Positions 1,611 to 54,217 of a stretch of 64,000 nt of DNA are shown here, one piece after another. The DNA comes from Pseudomonadota bacterium (GTDB lineage: Bacteria; Bdellovibrionota; UBA1018; CAIMNF01): positions 188,231-252,230 of the forward strand of contig JAIXOQ010000017.1 in assembly GCA_027486675.1 (NCBI GenBank). The letters run 5' to 3'. The stretch's first letter is position 1. Each line of letters starts with the position of its first letter. Position numbers and translations under genes: made by a program. The notes beneath the pieces are model-generated. The model was given only the letters and a program-made list of their open reading frames with translations, had not been told where the DNA came from and did not search any database.

Positions 1611-1915
1611 ACCCCTACGACCCACTCTACCCCCGTCCGATCATTGCGCATCTGAAGAAGATGATTCAGAAACTGCAAAAGGAGGTCACCTCGGTGGATC
1701 CGATCATTCTTGAAATGGATCAATTGAAGAGGAAGAACGAACAGATTAAAAAAGAGATTGCCCAGATCGAGGGAAGGTGGCTCATGGGATGCAATAAGGA
1801 CGACCTGTTAGCACAAAACCTCTATGAAGGAGTACAGGCACAAACCCTCTTAACAGAAATCGAATTAGCGGAAGCTCAGGAATTTCCAGATCATTCGAAG
1901 GAGAAATCAAAATGA
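1607..1915 (+). CDS. Small coiled-coil protein
   Basis: 102-aa K/E/Q-rich ORF. It is translationally coupled on both sides (4-nt overlaps at 1607-1610 and 1912-1915). Confidence 0.45.
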   Translation: MNPYDPLYPRPIIAHLKKMIQKLQKEVTSVDPIILEMDQLKRKNEQIKKEIAQIEGRWLMGCNKDDLLAQNLYEGVQAQTLLTEIELAEAQEFPDHSKEKSK

Positions 1916-2307
1916 CAGCGAAGTCAGTACTTTTTGTCGATGACGAAGTCCCGGTCTTAAATGCCTTAAAACGTCTGGTAGGAAACCTCGGATATGAGGT
2001 TCTGACCTGCGATTCGCCTCTCGAAGCACTCACGTTACTCAAGTCGCGCTCCATTCATCTCATCGTCTCAGACTACCGTATGCCTAAGATGACTGGTGCT
2101 GAGTTCCTGAGGGAGGTACGGAAATTGCGCCCGGAAAGTGTTCGCTTAGTACTTTCAGGCTATGCGGATGCTCAGGTCGTGACCGAGATGATTGAAAAGG
2201 GGGAAATATTTCGTTTCCTCATGAAACCCTGGGATGCACAGGAACTCAAGGCTGCAATTGAGGATGGGTTTGCACATCAGGAAAGAATGTCTTTCCTGAA
2301 AACTTAA
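1912..2307 (+). CDS. Stand-alone response regulator receiver (CheY-like)
   Basis: Receiver signature: the DD pair in VDDEVP, the phospho-acceptor Asp in LIVSDYRMP, a conserved Ser/Thr in LVLSGY, and Lys in MKPW. 131 aa with no output domain. Confidence 0.8.
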   Translation: MTAKSVLFVDDEVPVLNALKRLVGNLGYEVLTCDSPLEALTLLKSRSIHLIVSDYRMPKMTGAEFLREVRKLRPESVRLVLSGYADAQVVTEMIEKGEIFRFLMKPWDAQELKAAIEDGFAHQERMSFLKT

Positions 2308-2717
2308 AGCTGCGGACCAAGCAGAACCTTGATCCAACGTACATAACGATCATCTTGAACGGGCTTTTCTAAGAATATGAGGTTCTCAAGCAACGCAGGA
2401 TGCACACACTCTGCTTCATCCCGAAATCCCGTGAGAAGAAGAATCTTAGCAAATTGATTGGGGCCGGCGGTGGTACGAATCATTTTAACCAGATCCATGC
2501 CCGTCAATATCGGCATACGGTGGTCAAGTGATATTGCATCAAAAGATTGAGTTTGAATTCTTTTTAGTGCCTCCGTTGGATCATTGAAGGTCTCCACGTG
2601 GCAATTGAAATGCTCTTCTAAAATGAGCTTGAGGAGCCGCGTCATTTTCGGTTCATCATCGACGATAGCAATCCTACAAGATTCGGAATCTTCCACACTG
2701 CACCGCCTTAACTTCAT
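2304..2717 (-). CDS. Stand-alone response regulator receiver
   Basis: IVDDEP, ISLDHRMP, LLLTGF and LEKP receiver motifs. 137 aa. Convergent with the previous gene, with a 4-nt overlap. Confidence 0.75.
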   Translation of the reverse strand: MKLRRCSVEDSESCRIAIVDDEPKMTRLLKLILEEHFNCHVETFNDPTEALKRIQTQSFDAISLDHRMPILTGMDLVKMIRTTAGPNQFAKILLLTGFRDEAECVHPALLENLIFLEKPVQDDRYVRWIKVLLGPQL

Positions 2718-2813: not shown

Positions 2814-4211
2814 ATGTTTACAAAGTCTATAACCAGATTGACTACATTCTGCAGAGAACGACGATCTCTTTTCGTACCCACTCTTGCGCTTTTCCTCTGT
2901 TACATGGCCGCCGGTGCACTGGCGCGATACTCCTATGTTAGCAGCAGTCACGACGCACTGCGAAACCAGAGACTCCGCAGCATCACAGGAAAAATTTTTG
3001 ATTACTCCTCTGAGAACTACCATACACAGCTCGATTTTAAGATCTTTGTACAGAACCCGACTCGGGATTTTATTAACCATTTTAAGATTCACGAATCTGA
3101 TCTCTCTTTGAAGCAGTTAGAACTAGAAAAAACTTTAAACACACTGCGGGATGAGCTGGATCCGAAAACTATTTCGCTCTTCAAAGAGATTAAAAATCAC
3201 CAAGCAAAAACAGTTCAGCTTTGGAGTTTAGCGATCAGCAATTTCAATACGACGAGAAACTTGAACCGCTTGCGAGACCGCGTCACTTTATCGTCGATCG
3301 ATTTTGAGGTCTCAGAGTTTTTTCAAAAGTTAAAGGAGATGTCCGAGCTACATACCCTCCATGTCGATGCGGTTGCTACCCAAAATCGAAATGCGGTGGA
3401 TCGACGGCTACTGCTTTACGGAATCCTTGCTACCTGCGTCTTTTTTCTGCTGCTCTACATCATTGTCTCATCCATCCGCAGAGAAAGAACTCTAGTCAAC
3501 CAGTTGGTGCAGAACGAAAAGCTTTCATCCTTGGGTCAAATGAGCGCAGGCATAGCCCACGAGCTGAACACCCCGCTGATGTACATTCAAGGGTACGCAG
3601 GCAGGATTCGCTCTACATTACGGAAATCGAAAATCGAGCTTCCATCCCTTTCAGAATACCTTTCTGAGGTGGACGAAGGGATAGAACGCATGTCCTTGAT
3701 CATTGGCCATCTCAGAGAGTTTGCACGCAAAGACGACAAGAATAAGAAACCGTTTTCCCCTGAGAAGTCTATCTCACGTGCATTTGATTTCTTTAATGAA
3801 CAATTGGCTCAACAAGGTATCGACGTCCAACTTTTACTAGATGCGGGTGGCATGAAAATATTAGGAACGGCAAATCGGTTCGAACAAATCTTTATCAATC
3901 TGATCTCTAATGCTCGGGATGCGCTCCAGTCCATGCCGGAGAACCGCAACAAATATATCCGGGTGGTTTGTCAAAGCGTCGACCGTAACATTGCAATTCG
4001 TTTTGAGGATAATGGTCCGGGTATCCCTCAGGAAAAATTTAACCTTGTCTTTGAGCCCTTCTACACCACAAAACCTATGGGAAGTGGTACCGGCCTTGGT
4101 TTATCGATTGTGCATGAAATCGTGAATGAACACCGCGGCAAGATCACACTCAACTCAAACCCAAGGACCGGAACTGTGTTTACAATCGTCGTCCCAGGCG
4201 TAGAACCTTAG
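2814..4211 (+). CDS. Sensor histidine kinase (two TM helices, periplasmic sensor, HisKA and HATPase_c domains)
   Basis: H-box AHELNTPL. N-box NLISNARDA. G-boxes DNGPGI and GSGTGLGLSIV. Hydrophobic segments near aa 20-40 and 195-220. Confidence 0.85.
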   Translation: MFTKSITRLTTFCRERRSLFVPTLALFLCYMAAGALARYSYVSSSHDALRNQRLRSITGKIFDYSSENYHTQLDFKIFVQNPTRDFINHFKIHESDLSLKQLELEKTLNTLRDELDPKTISLFKEIKNHQAKTVQLWSLAISNFNTTRNLNRLRDRVTLSSIDFEVSEFFQKLKEMSELHTLHVDAVATQNRNAVDRRLLLYGILATCVFFLLLYIIVSSIRRERTLVNQLVQNEKLSSLGQMSAGIAHELNTPLMYIQGYAGRIRSTLRKSKIELPSLSEYLSEVDEGIERMSLIIGHLREFARKDDKNKKPFSPEKSISRAFDFFNEQLAQQGIDVQLLLDAGGMKILGTANRFEQIFINLISNARDALQSMPENRNKYIRVVCQSVDRNIAIRFEDNGPGIPQEKFNLVFEPFYTTKPMGSGTGLGLSIVHEIVNEHRGKITLNSNPRTGTVFTIVVPGVEP

Positions 4212-5284
4212 GAAGAACGAAAGAATTCACTCTTCAAATATGAATCCCGGCAATCCGCCAATAGAACCTTCGTAATCCCACCTAGCGGAATGGCAATCAA
4301 CATTGCCGCAAATCCACCCAAGTTCCCCGCCACCATCAAGACCATGATGGTCTCAAGCGCCGTTAACCCGACCCGATCCCCTACAATGCTTGGGGTGATC
4401 ACAAAACTCTCTAACGATTGGCCTATAAGAAAAACAAGCCAGACCCACAAAACAGATGTGATCTGATCGAAGTTCGCGAGTCCTACGAGTGTCGCGACAA
4501 CCGCGCCTAACCCTGGACCAACATAAGGGACTGCGTGCAAAAAGCCAGTCGCAAGCCCAATCAAGAAGCCGTACCGCAAACCGACTATTGTGTATCCAAT
4601 GCCGTAAATAGACCCTACCGTGATCGCCACGATCAGCTGTCCACGAAAGTAGCCTCCTACAATCTCATTCATTCGCTTACCCATTTTTTTGAACCACGCG
4701 CGATTTCTCACTGGAATGAGCGCTGAAACAGATTTAACAAGACGGTGGTGTTCGACCGTAAAGAAGAAATAGAAAACAGGTATTAGGAGAAAGTTGAAAA
4801 CAAAGAAGACAGTAGCCAGGGCACTTGAGAACGCTTTCCCAAAAACCTGAGTTGCAGATTTGAAAATATCAAAATTGATCCCTGAGGAATCAGAAGCTAA
4901 CTCCATCAGATCAGCCCGAGTAACAGGCAGCTCAAATCCAAAATAAAGCGCTATAGCATTAGTACGAAGGAGCACCACATCAATAATGCGAGGCAGATCT
5001 GCAATCAGACCCCTACACTCCCGAACTAGAAAAGGCACGAAAATCATCAGAAAAACAGCAGCGAAGAGCAGTGACGTCAAGAGAACCAGAAGTGCCGCCA
5101 CACCTGCCGTAACGCCTTTCCCCTCAAGCTTTTGAACCACCGGGTAAAGCAGATAAGAAAGCAAAGCCGCTAGAAACACTGGTATTAGGGCTGCGCCTAG
5201 ACCAGAGAAGATCACTAAAGCGACAAGAAGAAGAGTGGTTAGATACGCTACCCCAATGAATCGATTTTCCATATTCTCACTCAC
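4208..5284 (-). CDS. AI-2E family (UPF0118/PerM-like) transporter
   Basis: 358 aa with about 8 hydrophobic helices. Size and topology are typical of AI-2E permeases. Its start overlaps the stop of the upstream gene by 4 nt. Confidence 0.65.
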   Translation of the reverse strand: MSENMENRFIGVAYLTTLLLVALVIFSGLGAALIPVFLAALLSYLLYPVVQKLEGKGVTAGVAALLVLLTSLLFAAVFLMIFVPFLVRECRGLIADLPRIIDVVLLRTNAIALYFGFELPVTRADLMELASDSSGINFDIFKSATQVFGKAFSSALATVFFVFNFLLIPVFYFFFTVEHHRLVKSVSALIPVRNRAWFKKMGKRMNEIVGGYFRGQLIVAITVGSIYGIGYTIVGLRYGFLIGLATGFLHAVPYVGPGLGAVVATLVGLANFDQITSVLWVWLVFLIGQSLESFVITPSIVGDRVGLTALETIMVLMVAGNLGGFAAMLIAIPLGGITKVLLADCRDSYLKSEFFRSS

Positions 5285-7500
5285 TCTTTCAACACAGCTT
5301 CAAGTTCAATCAAGTGTTTGGTCCAAACCGAAGCATGGGCTCTAAACTCTGGAACTGCGCTACGGATTAGCACAAAGACGTATTTAGATAAAATCAGTGA
5401 ATCTAGGGCAACCCGTGAAGCCCGAAACCAATTTGAATCACTGTGGTTTGTACCTGTCACTTTTTCATAAATACTCTTATGGGAGAGGATGAGTTCCTTA
5501 AGGGTTCCTTGCGGTGCTCCAAGATACGCGATCAGCTCCAGCACATCCCTTTGTGGATAATCGAACCCTGCCCACTGCCAACCTAAGATCAACGCACCAC
5601 GATCTTTCGTGAATAAGATTTTTGAGGGCTTGAGATTGTTGTGCACCACCACACGACTTACGGAGGATTCTTGCGTGAGATTTTCTGAAGATCGCAAAAT
5701 CGCACGCTCGATGAGGCCCCTCCGACCTTCTTCCAGAGGCAAGCTCCCTCCGTGTTCGAGGAACAATTTAGAAAACTCCAAATAGAGCTGCGATGAGTGG
5801 CTGACCCCTAGATCACCGTGAACCTGTACTTCTTGCTGCGTTAAAATCTTCTGCGCCTGTGAAAGTGCCTCAAAGACCTGAGAGAATCGATCTTTTGGCA
5901 TGAACTCTGACGGGTCCATGTGCGGAACCAGCCGTTCCTGTGAAACGTACTCAGTTCCCATCATGTTGAAGTCGTGATCTGAGTCATCAGACTGCATAAA
6001 CACTACGGGCATATGTTTAAACCCAGCAGACGAAAGTGCGCTGTAAATCTTCCTCTCGCGGCGGCTTACCCCTACGAACTCAGTACTTCCTTGAATACGG
6101 CAAAACTCTTTTAAAAGGAGCGGTGACACACTTCCCGTCAACTTATACAGAGTATTGAGTACATCCGTATCGCTTGGCTTAAAGCTCAGAACAACTCGCT
6201 GTTCAACGCCTTCCCGCTTCCATACTGAAGTATTGTCATCGAGGGACGACTCAAATTGGAACCCCGTTTGATGAGAAAGCCACTGTTCTTTTGTGAGCCT
6301 ATCTTTCGGCCGGTTGCGCCCCATGCGTTCATGCGCCATTGCGAACTCCCCGTTCACCATCGCCGAAAAAGTGGAAAGCTCTAGTCCGAGCGCAAATCCT
6401 GCTATCAAACTTGCGAATCGTTCAATCTTCCCCGCTCCATCACAGCCCATGAGTTTTAAGGCCTGGTTAAAATGAGGGAGACTAGTGCCGCCTCCAACTG
6501 TGCCGATCACAAGCCTGGGCAGATTGAGACACACGTAGAGGTCACCATCACGATCTTCGGCATGCATAAAACCGGTGCTCGATTCATGGACACAAGCCAC
6601 GTCTTGGCCGGTCGCTAAAAAGAGGGCTGCAATCGAGTTCGCTACGTTGACGTTGTGGCCAACGGAACCATCAAAACTGGAAAGGTGTTTTCCCCAAAGA
6701 CCCCAATCTAAAAATTCCTTAGCGGTCACTTTCAAAGTCTTCTTCAACACGGCTTCCGGAATAACCGCTTCGCAAGTGACATGAACTCCGCGCCCACTGC
6801 CGATCTGATAGTAGGACACCTTTTTATCTGATGAACCGTTACAATCTAAAATGAACTTTTGAATTCTAAATGTGTGTTCGCGATTGAAGTCCTCTTCGAT
6901 CTTAAGACACGCATGCCAAGTGCAAGTCGTAGTCATGTTTTGTCCGGCTGCATCACCTGACGAGTATGAAAATTTACACTCGACCATGGATCCGACAATC
7001 AAGGACCTGATTTCAAGAAGTTCCGCGTGTTTAGAAAACTGCTTCACGTAAGCCGTGAGTTCTGGAACACGTGCCTTAAGCCAAGACTCAAACACCACAG
7101 CCTCTTGCAAAGAGCTGAATCGAAAAGCAGGGGCCCGCATCATCTTTTGGTGAATGACGTGTGCCTTAAATCCTCCCGACTGACTCAGGACGTAAGCGCC
7201 ACGGGTCATACTTGCGATGAGTGCGCCTTCGCTGGTTGCGGCTAATGCAAACACGGATTCCACTTTTTCGGTCGCACCCTGCCCAGTCCGATAGAGAAGC
7301 GGTCCTACAACTCCGGTTGGAACCGCTGTGCAGCCAATAAATCCCTCAATATTTGATGAAACATCCTCCGCTTGGATTGGGGATTCTAAAAACGCAGACA
7401 AATCCGCCCCAAGCAACGACAGAGCCCCTAAACGCGCTTGTCTCGCTTCTTCGTCGTGCCTAGACCGCATGCTTGCTAAGATCTTAAGTGAGTCGCTCAT
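5281..7500 (-). CDS. Fusion protein: HMG-CoA reductase-like catalytic domain (class I type) plus a C-terminal degenerate protein-kinase/APH-like domain
   Basis: The N-terminal half is collinear with HMGR motifs: PTGVVGPL, ATSEGALIAS, SDKK, DAAGQNM, CEAVIPEAVL, ATGQDVAC, IGTVGGGTSLP. The C-terminal has VHNNLKPSKIL and LGWQWAGFDYP, which are kinase-like but lack the catalytic Asp residues. I chose the start at 7500 (MSDSLKIL) because AGAGAGG lies about 10 nt upstream. The ORF extends to 7623. Confidence 0.7.
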   Translation of the reverse strand: MSDSLKILASMRSRHDEEARQARLGALSLLGADLSAFLESPIQAEDVSSNIEGFIGCTAVPTGVVGPLLYRTGQGATEKVESVFALAATSEGALIASMTRGAYVLSQSGGFKAHVIHQKMMRAPAFRFSSLQEAVVFESWLKARVPELTAYVKQFSKHAELLEIRSLIVGSMVECKFSYSSGDAAGQNMTTTCTWHACLKIEEDFNREHTFRIQKFILDCNGSSDKKVSYYQIGSGRGVHVTCEAVIPEAVLKKTLKVTAKEFLDWGLWGKHLSSFDGSVGHNVNVANSIAALFLATGQDVACVHESSTGFMHAEDRDGDLYVCLNLPRLVIGTVGGGTSLPHFNQALKLMGCDGAGKIERFASLIAGFALGLELSTFSAMVNGEFAMAHERMGRNRPKDRLTKEQWLSHQTGFQFESSLDDNTSVWKREGVEQRVVLSFKPSDTDVLNTLYKLTGSVSPLLLKEFCRIQGSTEFVGVSRRERKIYSALSSAGFKHMPVVFMQSDDSDHDFNMMGTEYVSQERLVPHMDPSEFMPKDRFSQVFEALSQAQKILTQQEVQVHGDLGVSHSSQLYLEFSKLFLEHGGSLPLEEGRRGLIERAILRSSENLTQESSVSRVVVHNNLKPSKILFTKDRGALILGWQWAGFDYPQRDVLELIAYLGAPQGTLKELILSHKSIYEKVTGTNHSDSNWFRASRVALDSLILSKYVFVLIRSAVPEFRAHASVWTKHLIELEAVLKE

Positions 7501-7574
7501 AGGGTACATTCCTCTCTTAGGAACTTCCGATGAGATCAGAAATACATAAAATTGGATAGGATCTGAACAACACC

Positions 7575-10668: not shown

Positions 10669-11412
10669 CTAAAACGGCTTGCTCTTAGACAATAGAACTG
10701 GGGAATAAAGGTCCTCACTTAAGGGAATCTGACATTCACGGGGGTCTACTTCCCCATGATCCCTAAACTCCACCTCGGCTCGAATGAGCGCTAAGGGCCG
10801 AGACTCATTGCCTTCACCCATGCAAAAGACCGCCGCAGTTGCCAGGGCGTCAGCGACGTTGATACGCGTCATCTTAAGTTTGCGCCCAAAAAGATCGGGC
10901 GTACCCACACGGCTAAAGATGCCATTGAAGCCCGAATAGGAAAGAGCCGTCCCCGTCACCCCTGCGCGAAGCGGCGTGGTTTTTGAGTCCGTAAGAATGA
11001 CCCCGAAATGTTTGAGCCCAAACTGAGAGGCAATCGCGTCGCGGATTTTTTTTGCCTCTAAGAATGGATCCTCTGGATAAAGGATATAGAAGTCGCCTTC
11101 GGCATTGGATTCATCGATGCCAGCCGATGGAATAAAGAGGCCGTGCTTGATGGTCAGAAAGACTCCGTACCCCACAGCGCCCAGAAAAATATCGCTCTCT
11201 TGACGCACGAGCTCTTCCTTACCAATCGACCCCTTGGCCACAATGCGACCGAGCGCCAAGGATACAATCTTTGAGGTGACAGCTAGGACTGCGCCCTCTA
11301 GATCGGAGGCAACCAATCGTTCGCGGCCCAGCGCTAGGAAAATGAAGGAGTTGAGGTCCTCCCCTACGCGAAGTATCGGTGTGTGAATTGCCCGGACCAT
11401 GAGCGAGCTCAT
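10669..11412 (-). CDS. CofE-family gamma-glutamyl ligase homologue, a candidate alternative dihydrofolate synthase (FolC2-like)
   Basis: 247 aa with F420-0:gamma-glutamyl ligase-like blocks: AVTSKIVS, IDESNA, ILTDSK, RAGVTGTAL, NVADALATAAVFCMGE, LIR. Its ATG overlaps the folKP stop (ATGA). Confidence 0.75.
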   Translation of the reverse strand: MSSLMVRAIHTPILRVGEDLNSFIFLALGRERLVASDLEGAVLAVTSKIVSLALGRIVAKGSIGKEELVRQESDIFLGAVGYGVFLTIKHGLFIPSAGIDESNAEGDFYILYPEDPFLEAKKIRDAIASQFGLKHFGVILTDSKTTPLRAGVTGTALSYSGFNGIFSRVGTPDLFGRKLKMTRINVADALATAAVFCMGEGNESRPLALIRAEVEFRDHGEVDPRECQIPLSEDLYSPVLLSKSKPF

Positions 11413-12674
11413 CGGCTATGCGCCCACGCTAAGATGGCACGGTGGTGTAGAACAGGATCATGAACGCGCAAGATCTCAACACCTCGTCCGAGTAGGCCGA
11501 GTGATATCCCTAAGGTCTCAGCGTCTCTTTCTGAAGCAGAAGCGCTGGTGAAGTCACTCATGAATGACTTCCTAGAATGCGCAGACAGCACTGGAAGCGA
11601 GAACTTTCTCAGAGCATCAATCGCTTTTAATATTCGGACCGCCTGCAGAGAGTGTTTTCCAAAACCAAAGCCCGGATCAAGAATCACTCTTGAACTTGAG
11701 ATTCCCTCCTTTTCAAGTTGTTCCAACCGGATTTCAAACCACTTGAGCAGCTGATCCATCGGATGCTCTTTTTCTGTCAGCACATCTTGGGGTTGCGGTG
11801 GAACAGAAAGGCTATGCATCAAAACCACCTGCACGTTTGAACCTTTCAAAACCTCGATCATCTCTGGATCCCGTAAGCCGCTGACGTCGTTAATTAAATC
11901 TGCACCCATTTCAATCGCACGCGCTGCAGTGATCCCCCACCGTGTATCAACGCTGATTTTGGGGCGAAGGATCTTCCCGGCATAACGACCTTTCAGTTGC
12001 TTCAGAGGAGGCACCAACCGCTCCCACTCCTCTGCGGTACTGAGCTCTTGACTGCCCGGCCGTGTCGATTCCGCACCAATATCAATCCACCCGAGGGGAA
12101 TCGCATCCCAACGATCGAGTGTCCTTTCAATCTGCTCAGTACTTCGATTGAGGCCCGGGTCAGAGAATGAATCTGGGGTTACATTGAGAATCCCCATGAG
12201 TGAGGGTTGATGCCGCGCATGCGAACGCGCTTGATCAATGATCCGTTTCCCCATAAATGAATAGCGCGGCGCAATTTCCGCCCAAGGGTCTAATACAAAA
12301 GCTCTTTCCAAACAGCTTGGATGCGGGAGGGTTAACTGCTCCTCTTCTTGGACAACGCCATCCACTTCAAGAATATCGATGTCGATTGTACGAGGTGCCC
12401 ATTTCACTAATCGTTCACGTTTTAAGGACTCTTCGATTGAGGCACAAGCGGAAAGAAGCGCCTCCGGGGTTCCTGAGTAGCGACCTTCAAGCACAAGATT
12501 TAAGAACGGACGATTAAAGGCTTGAGGTGCATTTGGAAGAAGCAGTGCCGGTGATTCGCGAAGAGATGAGATGCGTTTGACTTCGAGGACCTCACCGAGT
12601 CGCTTGATCGCGATTTCAAGATTCTGTGCACGATCCTCTAAATTGGAGCCTAGGCCCAAAAAGACTTTAGCCAT
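11409..12674 (-). CDS. folKP: Bifunctional HPPK / dihydropteroate synthase (FolK-FolP fusion)
   Basis: The N-terminal HPPK domain has LGLGSNLEDR and RTIDIDIL. The C-terminal DHPS domain has MGILNVTPDSFSD, DIGAESTRPG, SVDT, INDVSG. Start chosen at MAKVFLGLGSN. The ORF extends to 12719. Confidence 0.85.
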   Translation of the reverse strand: MAKVFLGLGSNLEDRAQNLEIAIKRLGEVLEVKRISSLRESPALLLPNAPQAFNRPFLNLVLEGRYSGTPEALLSACASIEESLKRERLVKWAPRTIDIDILEVDGVVQEEEQLTLPHPSCLERAFVLDPWAEIAPRYSFMGKRIIDQARSHARHQPSLMGILNVTPDSFSDPGLNRSTEQIERTLDRWDAIPLGWIDIGAESTRPGSQELSTAEEWERLVPPLKQLKGRYAGKILRPKISVDTRWGITAARAIEMGADLINDVSGLRDPEMIEVLKGSNVQVVLMHSLSVPPQPQDVLTEKEHPMDQLLKWFEIRLEQLEKEGISSSRVILDPGFGFGKHSLQAVRILKAIDALRKFSLPVLSAHSRKSFMSDFTSASASERDAETLGISLGLLGRGVEILRVHDPVLHHRAILAWAHSR

Positions 12675-13035
12675 CGCTTCGTAACTCGTCTTCGTAAGTG
12701 ACTCCACCGAGCAATCCATCGATTGGGGGACGAACTTTGTGGAGCGTCAATACGACGCTAGTATCACGCTTGAGATGTGGGCGGACCGACGCTGCGGCAG
12801 CAGTCCACATCGCTTCGATAGTTGCGAATGGACGACCCTTCACAGCGGCAGAAATTGAATCACAGACCTCCCCGTAACAAATGGTGTGGGCGAGTTCATC
12901 CGACTGACAGGCCTCGGGTGGGATAGGAAAAACAAAACTCAAAGAGAAACGAACCTCTTGAAGCAGCGCGCGCTCGGCCGGCGTGCAACCGAGGTTCACA
13001 GAGACTGAAAACTGATTTACCGAGAGTTTGGCCAT
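12667..13035 (-). CDS. folB: Dihydroneopterin aldolase
   Basis: About 120 aa with a FolB-like pattern (LGCTPAER, ICYGEV). Start chosen at MAKLSVNQ so it does not overlap the upstream gene. It lies directly upstream of folKP. Confidence 0.7.
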   Translation of the reverse strand: MAKLSVNQFSVSVNLGCTPAERALLQEVRFSLSFVFPIPPEACQSDELAHTICYGEVCDSISAAVKGRPFATIEAMWTAAAASVRPHLKRDTSVVLTLHKVRPPIDGLLGGVTYEDELRSDG

Positions 13036-13039
13036 GATT

Positions 13040-14185
13040 TCATTCTCTTTTTTTGAACTGCATTTCAAGCGAGGACTCAAGAACCGCGCTCAGCCTTAGG
13101 ATGTCTCCGACAGATATTTTACCTTTAAACCAAGAAGGGAGCTGGCCTAAGCGGGTGTGCAGAGTTTTTGGAGTCATGAGCACACCTTGATTCATCCGCA
13201 CTTGGGTCAGGGCGAGAAAAAAGGTGCCGATGGTGTTCTGATCCTTTGCTGTGAGCGAGAAAGTACCTCCGTGCTCAGCCTGTGAGATGGCTGTTGTGAG
13301 TGCACGGTAAAGATACTCGTGATTTGAAAGAAGAGCTATGGCGTCAAATGCATGAGTACTCACCCCGTGCCTGTGCTCCACGACAAATCCACTCAAAGGT
13401 TTAAACTCAGATGAAAGAGATGGGACTAACCAGTAAAGAGCATTTGCGGCTCGTCTTACATCAAACTCAAACTCGTTCTCACCAAATAGATCTAAATTTC
13501 CGCGGAATCGGATTGTTTTTTCTGTGTCTGAGGTCGTCACGTGAATGTATGCAAAGGGCAATCCAGCTAAAGCGGCTCGCTTCAATCCGCCGGGTTCATC
13601 TAACACAGGGATGTACGAGATTTGCGTAGCGGCTTGGCCGATGGATTGGCCTAAGCTCAGCATAAATCTCTTCCGCCATTCCCCTACGGGGTCTGCGGCC
13701 TCAGCGATAGTCGGATTGGGTACTCCGACCGGGTCCTGATCAGTCAAGAGCTGTGGGTTCAATAACGCGTGGCCAATGAGTGCTAACTCAAGACCTGGAT
13801 CAAGCGCCTGAAAGTACTCATGCTTTAAAAGCATGCGATTGATCTCAAGTAGACGCCTCAAGAATGGACTTTGCACAGGAAGAACAGGGCCAGCCTTATC
13901 AACCTTGGTTTTTAGCTCGCGAATATATTCCTGATAGCGTAGGCCTATCGCTACTGGAACAGTAAACTTTGCCCTACGGGTTAAGACCTCTACGGTGTGA
14001 AGGATCGCTTCAATCTCGAGCGGATCAACGAAACCTTCGCCTTGCGCCAAACGTGCACACTTCAGCTGGAATGCGAGTTGATCATGGACTGGAGAAACAG
14101 AGTCATCCGCTGCAAGAGAAGGCAGAACGAAAAAAAGGGAAAGAAAGAAAACGACTTGTAAGCATCCGCCCGAGCACTTCCCCAT
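13040..14185 (-). CDS. Secreted hypothetical protein
   Basis: 381-aa ORF with an N-terminal signal peptide (FFLSLFFVLPSLAADD). No recognisable motif. Confidence 0.55.
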   Translation of the reverse strand: MGKCSGGCLQVVFFLSLFFVLPSLAADDSVSPVHDQLAFQLKCARLAQGEGFVDPLEIEAILHTVEVLTRRAKFTVPVAIGLRYQEYIRELKTKVDKAGPVLPVQSPFLRRLLEINRMLLKHEYFQALDPGLELALIGHALLNPQLLTDQDPVGVPNPTIAEAADPVGEWRKRFMLSLGQSIGQAATQISYIPVLDEPGGLKRAALAGLPFAYIHVTTSDTEKTIRFRGNLDLFGENEFEFDVRRAANALYWLVPSLSSEFKPLSGFVVEHRHGVSTHAFDAIALLSNHEYLYRALTTAISQAEHGGTFSLTAKDQNTIGTFFLALTQVRMNQGVLMTPKTLHTRLGQLPSWFKGKISVGDILRLSAVLESSLEMQFKKRE

Positions 14186-26218: not shown

Positions 26219-27290
26219 ATATCCTTTGTACCCTGCCTGACACGCCCGTGAGTAGCTCGTAAGGAATTGTCCCTACTTGGGAGGCAACCTCCCAGGCAGG
26301 ACGACTTCGGCCCCAGATCTCAACGAAACTCCCAACTTTAAGCGGCTTTTTGGGTGCAGCATTGGTCACGTCCATGCTCACTCGACCAACTATCGGGAGC
26401 CGCTGTTTCCCTTGCGCAACCCATCCACATCCCGACAAAAGCCTGGGCACCCCGTCGGCGTAACCCGCACCTAACGTAACAATCCACTCACCATTCTTCA
26501 TTTTAACCCGATAGAGGCCAGCGTATCCGACCGACTCTCCACACGCCACTTTCTCACACTGCATCACCTGGGCCTCAAATTGCATGACCGGACGCAGGGA
26601 GGACTTTTCGGGCGGAGCTGGGGAGATCCCATAGAGCGAAATTCCAGGACGAACCAGGTCGGATTTTGTGAGGTCCCAAGAAGACGCAGCAAAAACAGAG
26701 CCGCTATTTCCCCAATGAATGCGAGCTTCCTTAAAACGCTCATCTCTCAACTCAAGAATTTTTTGAATTCCCTTCATCTGCTTTCGTGAAAGTCTACTGT
26801 CCGGCCGATCACTTTCGGCAAGGTGGGTGAAGATCCCTTTTGGTACAAGCTTCAGACCTAAAAGATCCTCGATCTGAATCCCAGATCGGTTCATTCCGGT
26901 CGTCACCTCCACTTCAAAAGGCATCTTTGTAGCACAGCTTACAAATGCAAGCATGGAATGAAGAGAACTGAGAACCGGGGTCAGCCTATGAGCCAAGAAA
27001 GCTTGCGCCCGGGCTTCATTCCAAGTGCCCGAATCGCTAAAAACGATAATCTCTTTCTTGGCTCGACCTAAATTTCGAAGTTCTAACGCTTCACCAAGGG
27101 TTGCGACACCGTAACCACACACTGCGTTATTTTCTTCAAAAGTACGCGCTAAAGGAACCAATCCATGGCCGTACGCATCCGCCTTCACCATCGCAAGAAG
27201 AGGGCGTCTAGAAATTTTAGAAAGAATTTGGATATTGTGATTGAGATTCGCGATTGAGATTCGAGCGCGTGATCTTGTTTCGAATGCCAT
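26211..27290 (-). CDS. alr: Alanine racemase
   Basis: PLP-lysine motif AMVKADAYGHG. Size is about 360 aa. Start chosen at MAFETRS. The ORF extends to 27326 and overlaps the upstream gene. Confidence 0.85.
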   Translation of the reverse strand: MAFETRSRARISIANLNHNIQILSKISRRPLLAMVKADAYGHGLVPLARTFEENNAVCGYGVATLGEALELRNLGRAKKEIIVFSDSGTWNEARAQAFLAHRLTPVLSSLHSMLAFVSCATKMPFEVEVTTGMNRSGIQIEDLLGLKLVPKGIFTHLAESDRPDSRLSRKQMKGIQKILELRDERFKEARIHWGNSGSVFAASSWDLTKSDLVRPGISLYGISPAPPEKSSLRPVMQFEAQVMQCEKVACGESVGYAGLYRVKMKNGEWIVTLGAGYADGVPRLLSGCGWVAQGKQRLPIVGRVSMDVTNAAPKKPLKVGSFVEIWGRSRPAWEVASQVGTIPYELLTGVSGRVQRIYE

Positions 27291-28818
27291 AGATCGAGTT
27301 TGCTCCAACCTTAAGCAAGCGAGCAAGAACTGGTCTCATCTCAGCACTCCTAGATCCCGCGTGCTTCACGATCAACAGGCCGACCAACTCCGCACCAGCA
27401 ACACTCATCTCCTGCCCTGTCGTAACCGCCCAGGCCTCGTAGTGAGATGTATTGAGCCCCTGCAACATGAGTGCTGACACGGGCCCGTAGTTCGTGAGTG
27501 CTGCTGACTTTCCCTGATTCGCCAGGCTCAACACTTGGGACTCAATGTCAGGCCTCACGTAGATCGGGAATGTCGCTTCATGGGGAAGATCGCCCACATT
27601 CGCGTGTCCAGAAAGATGCAAGTTATTGGTCGTCTTCTGATATCGAAAAAAGAGAATGGGTGACTCTGTGAGCTCACTTGAAAGCTGAATTAACTTCCTC
27701 TCGATTTCAAGCTCAGTCGAATTTGAGGTCGCAGCCTTTTGAAGCTCAGAGATAAAATCTCTCTTCCCTGTCTGCTGCACAATCGCTACCTGCGCATCGC
27801 TGGCCCGTTGCTGCTCCTGAATCCGAAGGCCCTGCGCTTCAGGCAAAACTTGCGCCGCGCGCGCTAACATCTGCGGTGAAGTTTTAAGTTGAGGTGCAAA
27901 CTTTGGAAGGTCGGGTGGAGTCATCTGGGCTAATTTAAATTCTGAGGATCGCTGACTACGAAGCAGAATTACGGCCGCTGCAAAGAGTAAGAAAGCAGCC
28001 AAAATCATGCTAAAAAATGTTTTTTGCCCTGAGGCAAAACTTGCAAATGAAAAAATCGAAGCCTGAGCATTGCGTTCAAGAAGTACAGCAAGCCCGGGGA
28101 TCGAGGTCTTTAAAACAGCATATTCGAGTTGGCCAGAATTGGCGGATTCGCGGTTTCCGGACTCGACCACTCTTCCGGTCGTCATCACAGTTGCGATCGC
28201 AGCTTTCAGCGAAGCTTCTTTAGAGAAGTCTGCACCAATCATCGAACGTTGCGTATGAGCTACAACCTTCCCGGACTCACCGAGTAACGCAACTCGATGT
28301 GGATGTGCTTTGGCGAAGAAGGCAGTGACGGCGTTTGGGTCAAGTACGCTGAGGGAAATATCATCACCCTTCCCAGGACGAACAAGAATCAACAACTCGT
28401 CAGACCCGAGTTCACTCCGCTTTACGGTCAGCGTCTGCATGCCCTTTTGCTTTAAGTCGACGGTACTCAATTGATTCTGAAAAACTCTTAAGATGCGGTC
28501 TTGCAGCGACAGGTCGTCCGGCTGATTCGCCTGAGCCAACACCACTTCATAAGGCAGCCCGTCTTTCAGTTTCAGCACACCCTTATTCACCGTGGCATCG
28601 GCACTGGGATGAGCCAAACCGACTTCAACCAGCTCCGAATAACGTTTTGCTAACTCGATTAATGAATCAACGCTGCGCACCCTAAGCTCGGCCCCAGCAA
28701 GAAGTACAAAGGCGCCCACTAGGAGCATTCCAGCACTCAATGAAAGAAGCAGAGCGATCCAGTTGGAGCGCAAATCCGATTTTGAAACGGGTCTTCCGTG
28801 ACTCGTCATGGGACGCAT
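27217..28818 (-). CDS. Membrane protein with a sensor-like topology (TM, periplasmic region, TM, cytoplasmic region); no output domain recognised
   Basis: 533 aa. Hydrophobic helices near aa 20-45 and about 265-290. Confidence 0.5.
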   Translation of the reverse strand: MRPMTSHGRPVSKSDLRSNWIALLLSLSAGMLLVGAFVLLAGAELRVRSVDSLIELAKRYSELVEVGLAHPSADATVNKGVLKLKDGLPYEVVLAQANQPDDLSLQDRILRVFQNQLSTVDLKQKGMQTLTVKRSELGSDELLILVRPGKGDDISLSVLDPNAVTAFFAKAHPHRVALLGESGKVVAHTQRSMIGADFSKEASLKAAIATVMTTGRVVESGNRESANSGQLEYAVLKTSIPGLAVLLERNAQASIFSFASFASGQKTFFSMILAAFLLFAAAVILLRSQRSSEFKLAQMTPPDLPKFAPQLKTSPQMLARAAQVLPEAQGLRIQEQQRASDAQVAIVQQTGKRDFISELQKAATSNSTELEIERKLIQLSSELTESPILFFRYQKTTNNLHLSGHANVGDLPHEATFPIYVRPDIESQVLSLANQGKSAALTNYGPVSALMLQGLNTSHYEAWAVTTGQEMSVAGAELVGLLIVKHAGSRSAEMRPVLARLLKVGANSIYGIRNKITRSNLNRESQSQYPNSF

Positions 28819-33625: not shown

Positions 33626-34672
33626 CTACCAGTTCAAGAGGTAGGCAAAGACCAGAGGCGCCACTATGGTCGCGTCGGACTCAATAATGTACTTGGGAGT
33701 ATCTACGGCGAGTTTGCCCCAGGTGATTTTCTCGTTCGGCACGGCACCCGAATAAGAGCCATAACTGGTTGTGGAATCGCTGATCTGGCAGAAGTAGCCC
33801 CATAGGCGAACCTTCTGTCCCAAATCCTTGTCGATCATAGGAACGACGCAGATTGGAAAGTCCCCTGCGATCCCGCCCCCAATTTGGAAGAAGCCGATGG
33901 AAGCCGACTTGGAAGTCTCTTGATACCACTGGGCGAGTTCGGTCATGTACTCGATCCCACTGCGGACCGTGTGAACGTTCTTCACGCGACCGGTGATGAC
34001 ATATGAGGTGTACATATTGCCGAGCGTGGAATCTTCCCAGCCTGGAACAAAGATCGGAATATTCTTTTCACATGCGGCAAGCAGCCAACTGTCTTTGATG
34101 TCGATCTCTGCTACTTTCTGAAACCTTTCTTGGCGTAACGCTTGATAGAAGTACTCGTGAGGAAAATATCTTTTTCCCTCTTTCTCAGCCGCAAGCCAAA
34201 GATCTTCCATCACCCGCCAAATGCGCTTCATCGCTTCTTCTTCAGGGATGCAAGTGTCCGTCACTCGATTTAATCCGCGTGCAAGCAACGCCCCTTCTTG
34301 TTCCGCTGTCAGATCACGGTAATTGGGAATGCGCTCGTAGTGGCTATGGGCCACCATGTTGTAGATGTCTTCTTCTAGGTTCGCACCTGTGCAGCTAATT
34401 CCATGCACCTTGCCTTGGCGGATCATTTCAGCCAATGAAAGCCCGAGCTCTGCGGTGCTCATGGCACCAGCCAAAGTGACGAACATCTTGCCGCCTGAGT
34501 CCAAGTGACGTTGATAACCCGCAGCGGCGTCAACTAAAGCAGCTGCATTGAAGTGGCGATAATGGTGGCGGATGAACTTTGAAACAGGACCTAAGGTTTG
34601 CATATGCGACACATATTGCGTGAATGCGGTGCCAGTTTGCAAGGGGAAGCCACATTCGTCCCATTGGCTCAT
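33626..34672 (-). CDS. Deoxyhypusine synthase-like protein
   Basis: 348 aa. DHS-family blocks (MFVTLAGAMSTAELG, GISCTGANLEEDIY). Size is typical of bacterial DHS-like proteins. Confidence 0.65.
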   Translation of the reverse strand: MSQWDECGFPLQTGTAFTQYVSHMQTLGPVSKFIRHHYRHFNAAALVDAAAGYQRHLDSGGKMFVTLAGAMSTAELGLSLAEMIRQGKVHGISCTGANLEEDIYNMVAHSHYERIPNYRDLTAEQEGALLARGLNRVTDTCIPEEEAMKRIWRVMEDLWLAAEKEGKRYFPHEYFYQALRQERFQKVAEIDIKDSWLLAACEKNIPIFVPGWEDSTLGNMYTSYVITGRVKNVHTVRSGIEYMTELAQWYQETSKSASIGFFQIGGGIAGDFPICVVPMIDKDLGQKVRLWGYFCQISDSTTSYGSYSGAVPNEKITWGKLAVDTPKYIIESDATIVAPLVFAYLLNW

Positions 34673-53140: not shown

Positions 53141-54217
53141 TTAATCATGGTCAAATCCGCAGCTGAATGAGGCTGCAGCGTTGGTCTGATGCGTGAAAGC
53201 TGAAGAGGGGGAGTATTGGTCTTTGTAGCTCATTTGGGTTATGAGCTGAGGTTTCAGTTCATAAAGCTTTAGAGCAAAAGCATTCAGGTCCTTTTGCTTA
53301 TTCAGATATTCGTCACTCACAGCGGCAAGTACTTCTGCCGAAAAACCTGTGTGAAGAATGGGCCATGCAGCAAGTGCCTCGTCCAGCTTCGCAAGGGTAT
53401 AATACCAGTGGCTTCCTAAACTGCTTTTTGCAACGTGAGTGATCTCAGCATTTGCTACCCTCGAGAGCAGTTCATAACCGATGACTGCCTCTTCAAGATG
53501 GCCGGCCACCAGCAGCCGCCAATACAGCCCTTGCGCTCGCCTTGCATGCTGGATGGTGGAATCCGACGATTGGGAACTTGCTTGGGAAGTGTTCAGAGCT
53601 TCTAAACTGTCCTTAAGCTGCGCACTAAGATCACTACTATCCTCATTTCCGGACCGACTTCTGAACAAATGATGAAAATACTCGTGCACTAGATCTAGAC
53701 GAGAAATGTCTTCACGCACAAAAATATGAGGGGAGCCTTGATAGTTTGACTCGTAAAGTCCGAGCAGAGCAGAACTCACCTTGCTGTCCTTTTGACGACT
53801 TTGCTCCCGCTTCACTACTTCAACCCAATTTTTCAACATCAACTCATCGGCTGCTGGAATGAGCCTTGCCATGGGTCTGCAATTATCCTGAGCCCCAGGA
53901 GTAGCAAATAATTTGACCCCCGCTTTCTGGATGAACTCGGTAGTCGCTGCTAGCGAGGTAGTCTTCAGAGCATTGAGGTGCTCTTGGTTAAAACGCTTAC
54001 CAAAGTCTGCAGTGACCAGACTAATGGCATCGAGCTTCGAGGGATCAAACGGATCTCCCTCAGTGGGGGGAACTTCACAGCTGGAAGCCGCGATACTTTT
54101 GCTGTTCAAGACGATCAAAACATCGGCCTTTTCCTTCTTTGCACCGCAGGCGGAGAGGGAGAGAAGGATCAAGAAAGCTTGACCGAGGGATCGGAGTGAA
54201 AACGTCGCAAAAAGCAC
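53141..54217 (-). CDS. Lipoprotein with an HExxH motif (putative metalloprotease)
   Basis: Lipobox LSLSACG. VHEYFHHLF. Confidence 0.5.
   Translation of the reverse strand: MLFATFSLRSLGQAFLILLSLSACGAKKEKADVLIVLNSKSIAASSCEVPPTEGDPFDPSKLDAISLVTADFGKRFNQEHLNALKTTSLAATTEFIQKAGVKLFATPGAQDNCRPMARLIPAADELMLKNWVEVVKREQSRQKDSKVSSALLGLYESNYQGSPHIFVREDISRLDLVHEYFHHLFRSRSGNEDSSDLSAQLKDSLEALNTSQASSQSSDSTIQHARRAQGLYWRLLVAGHLEEAVIGYELLSRVANAEITHVAKSSLGSHWYYTLAKLDEALAAWPILHTGFSAEVLAAVSDEYLNKQKDLNAFALKLYELKPQLITQMSYKDQYSPSSAFTHQTNAAASFSCGFDHD

Follow-up and report, generated by a model that had tools for sequence, protein, structure and literature searches.

The closest described counterparts of the locus analysed here are the class I HMG-CoA reductases (HMGRs), for example that of Methanothermococcus thermolithotrophicus (6HR7) and the human HMGCR catalytic domain (1DQ8/2Q1L), the APH/choline-kinase/homoserine-kinase-II kinases, including the ACAD10/ACAD11 domains, and the AI-2E transporters (TqsA, CxpE and YtvI). 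The locus consists of a gene for an HMGR-like reductase fused to a kinase-fold domain, followed by an AI-2E permease gene; both lie in a 64-kb stretch of DNA that was analysed as a whole and is called the window below. Unlike class I HMGRs, the window protein has Asp, Val, Asn and Thr at the positions of human S684, K735, H752 and L853, carries a kinase-fold domain, and scores 244.1 bits against the NCBIfam HMGR equivalog TIGR00533, below the cut-off of 441.8. No mevalonate-pathway genes (HMGS, GHMP kinase, decarboxylase or IDI) were found among the approximately 50 scanned ORFs of the window. The kinase-fold domain is 11-14% identical to the APH/choline-kinase/homoserine-kinase-II kinases and lacks every one of their catalytic residues. 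Kennedy-type and archaeal CarS-type CDP-alcohol pathways offer a comparison for the intact members of the fusion family, not for the window gene. As in those pathways, intact family loci are predicted to encode an alcohol kinase, a CarS-like CTP-dependent membrane transferase (its sole PDB match is 5GUF) and a CDP-alcohol phosphatidyltransferase together; unlike in those pathways, the alcohol of the intact family would come from an HMGR-like reductase.

The fusion of an HMGR-like and an APH domain is common. The initial annotation had considered the architecture unusual, but our search gave 2451 database matches, every one of the best 120 being a fusion, and at least 575 matches were counted in species-representative genomes; the fusion occurs in Bacteroidota, Bdellovibrionota and others. 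Members such as those of Kordia jejudonensis (P0031) and Bdellovibrionales (P0005) are collinear with the window protein over both domains, share its pocket signature and are 33-49% identical to it. They have intact HNDxNxRN, YDWEL and LLKSK motifs, which the window protein lacks, and CarS-like, Rph/PPDK-like, UbiA-like or CDP-OH_P_transf neighbours where the window has AI-2E. Annotations of the family clash, with “HMG-CoA reductase (NADPH)” at JGI and “phosphotransferase” at NCBI, and both labels are probably misleading for the window protein. Our full-text literature search found no paper on an HMGR + phosphotransferase/APH fusion or its gene cluster, and no published function for the parent family; it extended to the missing mevalonate kinase in Flavobacteria, Bacteroidetes CDP-archaeol synthase homologues and Bdellovibrio mevalonate. 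Its one useful yield was ACAD10/11, in which the kinase domain has functional analogues. The window gene is a rare offshoot of this common, unstudied bacterial fusion family.

The fusion gene and its upstream signal are located as follows.

5281..7500, minus strand: gene for the two-domain protein (HMGR-like reductase + pseudokinase), 739 aa, from the ORF list and a database match
7511..7516, minus strand: GAGAGG, a Shine-Dalgarno-like motif read from the sequence, 10 nt upstream of ATG 7500

The gene is a single ORF from the ATG at 7500 to the TGA at 5283..5281, and its product is 100% identical to database protein P0001. This start is common to P0001, P0002 and P0003 (MSDSLKIL/MNESLKIL); an alternative TTG start at 7623 (780-aa ORF), which overlaps a divergent ABC-F gene, was rejected. 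GAGAGG is a putative ribosome-binding signal of the Shine-Dalgarno type. Scanning the window against Rfam and for tRNAs gave no match, and so no riboswitch clue, and a promoter/terminator scan returned background-level matches only.

The N-terminal half carries the reductase features.

6307..7413, minus strand: class I HMG-CoA-reductase-fold domain, aa ~30-398, with E91, K226, D300 and H390
7228-7230, minus strand: catalytic E91, by HMGR alignment
6823-6825, minus strand: catalytic K226, by HMGR alignment
6601-6603, minus strand: catalytic D300, by HMGR alignment
6331-6333, minus strand: catalytic H390, by HMGR alignment
6370..6846, minus strand: acyl-pocket positions unlike those of true HMGRs, from alignment to human HMGR 2q1l and family columns
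6844-6846, minus strand: D219 (human S684); family E/D in 120/120
6784-6786, minus strand: V239 (human K735); family I/V/T/C in 116/120, the remainder A or M
6646-6648, minus strand: N285 (human H752); family N in 120/120
6370-6372, minus strand: T377 (human L853); family T in 120/120

The window protein matches Pfam PF00368 (HMG-CoA_red fold), and the HMGR blocks quoted in the initial annotation are present. By alignment, including that with human HMGR, E91, K226, D300 and H390 correspond to the catalytic Glu, Lys, Asp and His, all intact here and invariant in 120/120 homologues. The reductase half is apparently a working HMGR-like enzyme. All four compared HMG-contacting positions are replaced, both in the window protein and family-wide. 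In human HMGR, S684, K735, H752 and L853 reportedly bind the carboxylate/methyl end of HMG, with K735 as the carboxylate salt-bridge Lys (Istvan et al. 2000). Because the HMG-binding residues of true HMGRs are replaced throughout the family, the substrate of the fusion family is probably a compound other than HMG-CoA.

The C-terminal half carries the remains of a kinase.

5284..6240, minus strand: APH/choline-kinase-fold pseudokinase domain, aa ~421-739
6178..6225, minus strand: degenerate N-lobe with a 17-aa deletion and K439S, by homologue alignments
5620..5643, minus strand: catalytic-loop relic HNNLKPSK (family HNDxNxRN), D622N + N627K, by homologue alignments
5572..5589, minus strand: Mg-binding (DFG-equivalent) relic ILGWQW (family IYDWEL), D640G + E642Q, by homologue alignments

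This domain keeps a bilobal kinase-like fold, for which the AF2 model is confident, and the alignments bear out the earlier view of a catalytically degenerate kinase-fold domain beside an HMGR-fold domain. VHNNLKPSKIL and LGWQW, the relics that had been singled out, fall exactly at the family HNDxNxRN and IYDWEL positions; in APH(2'') and the ACAD11 kinase domain, what aligns with them is the catalytic loop and the Mg-binding Asp. The 17-aa N-lobe deletion takes out the family-invariant K..G hairpin. The LLKSK strand now reads LSFK, with K439 as the putative ATP-binding Lys (the invariant N-lobe columns are K53, G56 and K79 of A2). The two Pfam matches anticipated for the 739-aa protein fared differently, in that HMG-CoA_red was found and APH (PF01636) gave no match at E<0.1. 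The APH score drops stepwise from 37 bits in P0003 to 17 bits in P0002 and none in the window. Kinase motifs are intact in 117-118 of the 120 homologues, gone in P0001 and P0002 and partly gone in P0003. Because nearly all relatives keep these motifs, the dead kinase represents decay in one lineage, limited to the window's clade of three known sequences. A metagenome scan for dead-kinase relatives added one locus (L088, at 49% identity, a level equal to that of P0004), and HMMER with the pseudokinase domain against 1.84 billion representatives returned a single cluster below 1e-30.

The two halves evolve at different rates. Between P0001 and P0002, identity is 89% over the HMGR domain but 43% over the C-terminal domain, whereas intact-kinase pairs of similar HMGR identity are 69-78% identical in the C-terminal domain. 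The HMGR domain has a pN of 0.07 and the C-terminal domain one of 0.39, with pseudokinase values spanning 0.39-0.45, and the dN of 0.56 vs 0.07 makes the pseudokinase approximately 8-fold faster. Because synonymous sites are saturated (pS ~0.8), dN/dS takes no finite value, and selection on the pseudokinase is judged from a pN below saturation and from the open ORF kept by each of the three dead-kinase lineages. Conserved C-terminal patches span aa 421-520 and 611-665, and H620, R651, D652 and E655 of the window pseudokinase are invariant across the family.

The second gene of the locus lies directly downstream.

4208..5284, minus strand: gene for a permease of the AI-2E family, 358 aa if started at GTG 5284 and 354 aa if started at ATG 5272

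Its product is like the AI-2E transporters in matching Pfam PF01594 (E=3e-51, residues 15-343), but falls below every NCBIfam equivalog cut-off, matching the CxpE model weakly. Outside the clade, source-named homologues reach at most 34% identity with it, and the next AI-2E homologue, P0130, which adjoins an unrelated divergent gene, reaches 44%. The permease gene is co-directional with the fusion gene and overlaps or abuts it. The 4-nt overlap (GTGA) described in the initial annotation holds if translation starts at GTG 5284, whereas the public call, ATG 5272, leaves an 8-nt gap past the stop. Since the junctions of relatives are also tight (a 4-nt overlap in L087 and a 6-nt gap in L002), the close co-directional coupling first noted in the window is conserved with either start. 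The pairing is found in L002 and L086/L087 too, and so in all three dead-kinase lineages, with AI-2E orthologues that are 74% and 61% identical.

Downstream of intact fusions there are usually CarS-like, Rph/PPDK-like, UbiA-like or CDP-alcohol-transferase genes. Among the 57 family loci whose downstream sequence extends to 4 kb or more, CarS-like genes are found in 42, PPDK-like genes in 37 and CDP-OH_P_transf genes in 17, and the window clade alone has AI-2E directly downstream of the fusion gene. Three further membrane proteins of the family clusters (u195, u246 and u242) were considered as divergent CDP-alcohol transferases and rejected; they are weakly UbiA-like. The nearest intact-kinase relative, P0124 (49% identical), has the full partner cluster, and is unlikely to be a paralogue from the same organism because the GC content of its contig differs from that of the window (36.8% vs 49.6%). 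Partner proteins gave no tblastn match in the 64-kb window, and across its clade the fusion gene has none of these partners close by. The rest of the genome could still contain partner genes or an intact paralogue. The intact kinase motifs of relatives, the altered acyl pocket and the absent lipid-type clusters had all been missed in the initial annotation.

The domain folds and residue states, the decay confined to this lineage and the altered gene context are observed; from them we infer, with a probability of roughly 55%, a truncated pathway encoded by a two-gene operon, in which an intact reductase with an attached pseudokinase would yield a free alcohol for transport by the AI-2E permease. 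The fusion gene would descend from a widespread bifunctional family whose N-terminal half is an NAD(P)H-dependent acyl-CoA reductase of the class-I-HMGR fold and whose C-terminal half is a small-molecule kinase of the APH/choline-kinase type. Intact members would probably convert a non-HMG-CoA thioester to a primary alcohol and then to a phosphate ester, to be passed to neighbouring membrane enzymes (CarS-like CTP-transferase, Rph/PPDK-like dikinase, UbiA-like/CDP-alcohol transferases). In the window lineage the reductase half is intact and under strong constraint. The kinase half has lost the catalytic Asp and both Mg ligands, as well as the nucleotide-binding hairpin and the Lys that probably bound ATP, and would persist as a fast-evolving, still selected pseudokinase. 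With the permease presumably translationally coupled downstream and the usual partners absent from the 64-kb window, the enzyme would stop at the free alcohol, which the permease (acting on it or on a precursor) would move across the inner membrane, possibly as export. The pseudokinase could have a non-catalytic role, structural or ligand-binding, and the regulatory module originally proposed is possible. The adjacency of the fusion and AI-2E genes could also stem from co-expression without a common substrate.

Other explanations concern the chemistry of the reductase half. The initial annotation had a Glu replacing the catalytic His, giving an HMGR-like domain of impaired or altered chemistry plus a regulatory pseudokinase. 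Its pseudokinase part is correct, but the replacement is a misalignment: phmmer sets the window GEFAMAH opposite GHLVKSH, GQLVRSH and GHLARAH of human, plant and archaeal HMGRs, and Glu 385 pairs with the first, non-catalytic His of the human motif. The last His of human GHLVKSH is the catalytic His866 (PROSITE PS01192 and Istvan 2000). It is this His that H390 matches, in four independent phmmer alignments, and with H390 invariant family-wide a catalytic His lost to Glu is highly improbable. We also consider it unlikely that the gene encodes a genuine mevalonate-pathway HMG-CoA reductase with a vestigial C-terminal domain and an incidental AI-2E neighbour, given the replaced equivalents of S684, K735, H752 and L853, a TIGR00533 score far under its cut-off and the scanned window ORFs being free of mevalonate-pathway genes. 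Against this explanation too, 7n7s (Elizabethkingia), the one flavobacterial HMGR with a solved structure, is as distant from the window protein as a class II enzyme, which suggests that in Flavobacteriia the fusion is an extra paralogue.

With regard to the C-terminal half, its approximately 8-fold faster evolution, the loss of every catalytic motif and the gain of a deletion would fit decaying junk en route to deletion, in a gene that is effectively a stand-alone reductase. We regard this as improbable, though worth bearing in mind, since ~320 codons have remained open in three lineages with saturated synonymous sites, pN is well under saturation, both conserved patches persist with their family-invariant residues, and the domain is modelled confidently by AF2. 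Some annotated pseudokinases keep activity; a kinase still active here by a non-canonical mechanism is nevertheless scarcely plausible when five independent elements (hairpin, Lys, catalytic Asp, and the Asn and Asp metal ligands) are lost together. Kinase loss and permease gain would be explained equally well by a catabolic or salvage operon, in which an alcohol, perhaps released from a lipid or solute that the family makes, enters through the permease and is oxidised to acyl-CoA by the reductase working backwards, with no kinase needed. HMGRs can catalyse their reaction in both directions, and that of P. mevalonii is degradative, but the known degradative enzymes are class II, catabolic genes are absent from the adjacent downstream region and AI-2E family members may transport in the other direction, and such an operon is distinctly unlikely in our view.

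The truncated two-gene operon that we favour can be set, tentatively, in a wider frame. The fusion might be the entry module of an undescribed but widespread lipid backbone or head-group pathway in Bacteroidota, Bdellovibrionota and some Acidobacteriota and Gammaproteobacteria, a suggestion that we hold as possible rather than probable. In that pathway, reduction of a CoA thioester other than HMG-CoA to an alcohol and phosphorylation of the alcohol would be followed by CDP activation or transfer, the work of membrane enzymes of the CarS-like, UbiA-like or CDP-alcohol-transferase type. In the window lineage the module would have been rewired, through loss of kinase activity and gain of an AI-2E permease, to yield a free, secreted alcohol, which might be a signal or a solute.

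This locus is a natural example of a bifunctional enzyme with one half switched off and the other strongly constrained. The switch-off of the kinase coincides with a change of operon partners, making the locus a useful case for the study of pseudoenzyme evolution. Attention is drawn as well to the parent family, present in hundreds of species-level genomes, in which an HMGR-fold reductase with a pocket that no longer fits HMG is fused to a predicted alcohol kinase and lies within CarS-like, UbiA-like and CDP-alcohol-transferase clusters.

The fusion gene and the coupled permease gene were delimited as follows.

Fusion gene, 739 aa: ATG 7500 to TGA 5283..5281, minus strand; ORF; its translation equals database protein P0001
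GAGAGG motif: 10 nt upstream of ATG 7500, minus strand; read from the sequence
AI-2E family permease gene: directly downstream of the fusion gene, minus strand; Pfam PF01594, E=3e-51

A mechanically called start at TTG 7623 was rejected because it overlaps the divergent ABC-F gene; the extension is also absent from the two closest relatives, both of which begin at the same Met as the ATG 7500 product. The 4-nt GTGA overlap with the permease gene that was described in the initial annotation is obtained if the latter starts at GTG 5284, but gives way to an 8-nt gap under the public gene call (ATG 5272). The AI-2E orthologues of the dead-kinase lineages are 74% and 61% identical, tracking the identity of the fusion genes, and the next AI-2E homologue (44% identity) is without a linked HMGR-like + APH gene. 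The AI-2E gene of the window converges on a HisKA/HATPase sensor kinase gene (2814..4211, plus strand), and their 3′ ends share 4 nt. Two receiver-only response-regulator genes (1912..2307, plus strand; 2304..2717, minus strand) are likewise convergent, with an end-to-end overlap.

Residues ~30–398 of the fusion protein match Pfam HMG-CoA_red (E=4.4e-88) and residues 400–739 have no Pfam match; of the two domains proposed earlier, the HMMER/Pfam search recovers the reductase and not the APH. The reductase domain aligns with the class I enzyme of Methanothermococcus thermolithotrophicus (6hr7; E=1e-62) and with human and plant HMGR (about 1e-38). All HMGR blocks quoted in the initial annotation are present, and none of E91, K226 and D300 varies across 120 homologues. 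The proposed replacement of the catalytic His by Glu arose from a misalignment and is refuted; we regard it as having next to no chance of being right. In every phmmer alignment, GEFAMAH of the window protein pairs with human GHLVKSH, plant GQLVRSH and archaeal GHLARAH, such that Glu385 lies opposite the first, non-catalytic His of the human block and H390 opposite its last residue, which we take to be the catalytic His (His866 in human HMGR; PROSITE PS01192, Istvan et al. 2000). H390 is conserved in 120/120 homologues and, with the three invariant residues, completes the catalytic tetrad.

The substrate pocket was compared by alignment to human HMGR and by column composition across the 120 family members.

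Pocket positions in human HMGR, the window protein and the family
Ser684: D219 in the window protein; E or D in the family, 120/120
Lys735: V239 in the window protein; I/V/T/C in the family, 116/120, the rest A or M
His752: N285 in the window protein; N in the family, 120/120
Leu853: T377 in the window protein; T in the family, 120/120

In human HMGR, Lys735 salt-bridges the carboxylate of HMG, and Ser684, His752 and Leu853 contact the HMG moiety. Human R590, D690, K691, K692, N755 and D767 all have equivalents in the window protein. Where the NCBIfam HMGR equivalog has a cut-off of 441.8 bits, the protein reaches 244. We infer that the reductase chemistry is conserved, two hydride transfers turning a CoA thioester into a primary alcohol, and that the acyl group is probably other than HMG, given the changed pocket positions and the score under the equivalog cut-off.

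The identity of the C-terminal domain emerged from profile comparison. Aligned by hhalign with a profile built from the C-terminal domains of 34 intact family members, it matched at 99.8% probability (E=6e-28), and the family profile finds its best PDB sequence matches in the kinase domain of ACAD11 and in APH(2'')-IIa. The family motif HNDFNPRN corresponds to HGDFKLDN and HNDFSANN in these two proteins, respectively, and YDWEL to LDWEL and IDFGD. These motifs are intact in 117–118 of the 120 homologues. In the window protein, the catalytic loop reads HNNLKPSK (catalytic Asp to Asn, metal-binding Asn to Lys), the DFG-equivalent reads ILGWQW (metal-binding Asp to Gly), LSFK replaces the family LLKSK (invariant Lys to Ser), and a 17-aa deletion in the N-lobe has removed the invariant K..G hairpin. 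H620, R651, D652 and E655 are still invariant and may represent the structural His/Asp scaffold of APH-type and protein kinases. At the level of motifs this is a textbook pseudokinase pattern, which upholds the earlier reading of a degenerate kinase-like domain.

The same annotation had considered the HMGR-kinase-like architecture unfamiliar, but it is already abundant in databases. A full-length search returned 2451 matches, of which the best 120 were examined for architecture; all were HMGR-like + APH fusions of about 760–790 aa, named "phosphotransferase" by NCBI and "HMG-CoA reductase" by JGI. At least 575 relatives occur in species-representative genomes, those listed having at most 41% identity to the window protein. 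They are found in Bacteriovoracaceae, Oligoflexia, Acidobacteriota, Planctomycetota, some Gammaproteobacteria and many Bacteroidota (Kordia, Winogradskyella, Chitinophaga, Saprospiraceae and others). Family variants of ~1040 aa (P0086, P0020) carry an extra N-terminal P-loop domain resembling thymidylate/deoxynucleoside kinases, and at other loci (L011:8112-11339) similar P-loop kinases and an NTP_transf_5 nucleotidyltransferase are encoded by separate neighbouring genes. Our literature search found no functional study of the fusion. The novelty of the window gene lies in its being a pseudokinase derivative, specific to its lineage, whose operon partner has changed; the degenerate kinase is confined to three sequences.

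Fusion proteins with a degenerate kinase
P0001 (window): 100% identity; loop HNNLKPSK; DFG-equivalent ILGWQW; N-lobe hairpin deleted, Lys lost
P0002: 68% identity to the window protein; loop HNALEPKN; DFG-equivalent ILNWQW; N-lobe deletion as in P0001
P0003: 61% identity to the window protein; loop HNDLRPTH; DFG-equivalent LVGWEL; N-lobe hairpin and Lys kept

At 49% identity, P0004/P0124 is the next closest relative, and its kinase is fully intact. When 1.84 billion representatives were searched exhaustively by HMMER with the window pseudokinase domain, one cluster fell below 1e-30 and only 38 hits below 1e-3. The motifs suggest an initial loss of the Mg-binding Asp in the ancestor shared by the dead-kinase clade, followed by independent decay in each lineage. 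GC content is 36.8% on the contig of the intact relative (L085) but 49.6% in the window and in the other two dead-kinase lineages, a contrast between sister lineages that may reflect horizontal transfer of the fusion gene.

The reductase domains of P0001 and P0002 are 89% identical and their C-terminal domains 43%, whereas intact family pairs of comparable reductase identity retain 69–78% in the latter. Nei-Gojobori estimates show saturation at synonymous sites, with pS about 0.8 in either domain, and pN is 0.07–0.11 in the reductase domain, indicating strong constraint, and 0.39–0.45 in the C-terminal domain. The pseudokinase thus appears far more relaxed than the reductase, yet not neutral, since its pN is well under saturation, its reading frame of ~320 codons is uninterrupted in three lineages, and aa 421–520 and 611–665 retain conserved patches.

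We clustered the ORFs of 84 related loci. A gene for a CarS-like membrane protein (~173 aa; sole PDB match CDP-archaeol synthase 5GUF) lies directly downstream of the intact fusion gene in 49 loci, and an Rph/PPDK-like dikinase gene (~800 aa) occurs in 51. Among the 57 loci with at least 4 kb of downstream sequence, CarS-like genes are present in 42, PPDK-like genes in 37 and CDP-OH_P_transf genes in 17. Some lineages encode a family of multi-pass membrane proteins that share an FRxFDD motif and match UbiA at ~90% probability in hhalign; methyltransferase, PlsC-type acyltransferase and FA_desaturase-family genes are also lineage-dependent, and Kordia-type loci combine CDP-alcohol phosphatidyltransferase, GtrA-like and CarS-like genes. 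Another cluster type unites CarS-like, Rph/PPDK-like and UbiA-like genes with genes for a methyltransferase, PlsC acyltransferases and an FA_desaturase. These clusters look like a lipid or head-group pathway. They are conserved and apparently undescribed (L003:8947-18826, L004:10001-13839, L085:8806-19455), and no published function was found for them in the literature. The nearest intact-kinase relative has the full partner set. The three dead-kinase lineages share the order IDH, divergent ABC-F, fusion gene and AI-2E permease, and tblastn with the partner families found none in the 64-kb window. Its remaining genes are housekeeping (folate genes, PmbA/TldD, RlmN, glycolysis, EF-G, BipA and others), and no mevalonate-pathway genes were found there. 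Several of these neighbours deserve individual mention.

12667..13080, minus strand: FolB, Pfam assignment via syntenic locus L002
11409..12719, minus strand: HPPK-DHPS fusion, Pfam assignment via L002
10669..11412, minus strand: CofE/F420_ligase-family gene, Pfam assignment via L002
33626-34672, minus strand: deoxyhypusine-synthase-family gene, Pfam DS, E=3e-41

Stops and starts overlap along the folate string (10669-13080, minus strand), in which the CofE-like member is unusual. The product of 33626-34672 may be a homospermidine-synthase-like enzyme. Three large minus-strand ORFs, 54421-57180 (919 aa), 27217-28818 (533 aa) and 53141-54217 (358 aa), matched nothing in Pfam at E<1e-4.

The gene content suggests that in the parent family the reductase would yield an alcohol, which the fused kinase would phosphorylate. 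This kinase resembles alcohol/amino-alcohol kinases and the lipid-alcohol kinase domains of ACAD10/11 (PMC12440821, PMC13596139). The phosphate ester would then be taken by CTP-dependent and prenyl-/phosphatidyl-transfer membrane enzymes, along either a Kennedy-like route to a head group or a CarS-like route to a backbone. Judging from the lost residues, the phosphorylation step would be impossible in the window lineage and, as the later enzymes are also absent nearby, the free alcohol would be the end product. The coupled AI-2E permease would be its most likely handler, and the pseudokinase may be kept for a structural or ligand-binding role beside the C-terminal flap bearing H390. We give this composite model a probability of roughly 55%; its anatomical parts are near certain, and its export step is tentative and less likely than not.

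Other explanations fit less well. That the C-terminal half is pure junk is unlikely, as the ORF has been preserved at saturated divergence. That the gene encodes a true HMGR of the mevalonate pathway, its tail being vestigial, is quite unlikely, considering the altered pocket, the low equivalog score and a window devoid of mevalonate-pathway context. A catabolic operon that imports and oxidizes an alcohol seems unlikely, and a still-active atypical kinase, set beside the lost catalytic and metal-binding motifs, scarcely credible.

The window gene constitutes a natural experiment in pseudoenzyme evolution. It also leads to an unstudied family whose annotations are probably wrong on the substrate and, for the window protein, on the activity as well.
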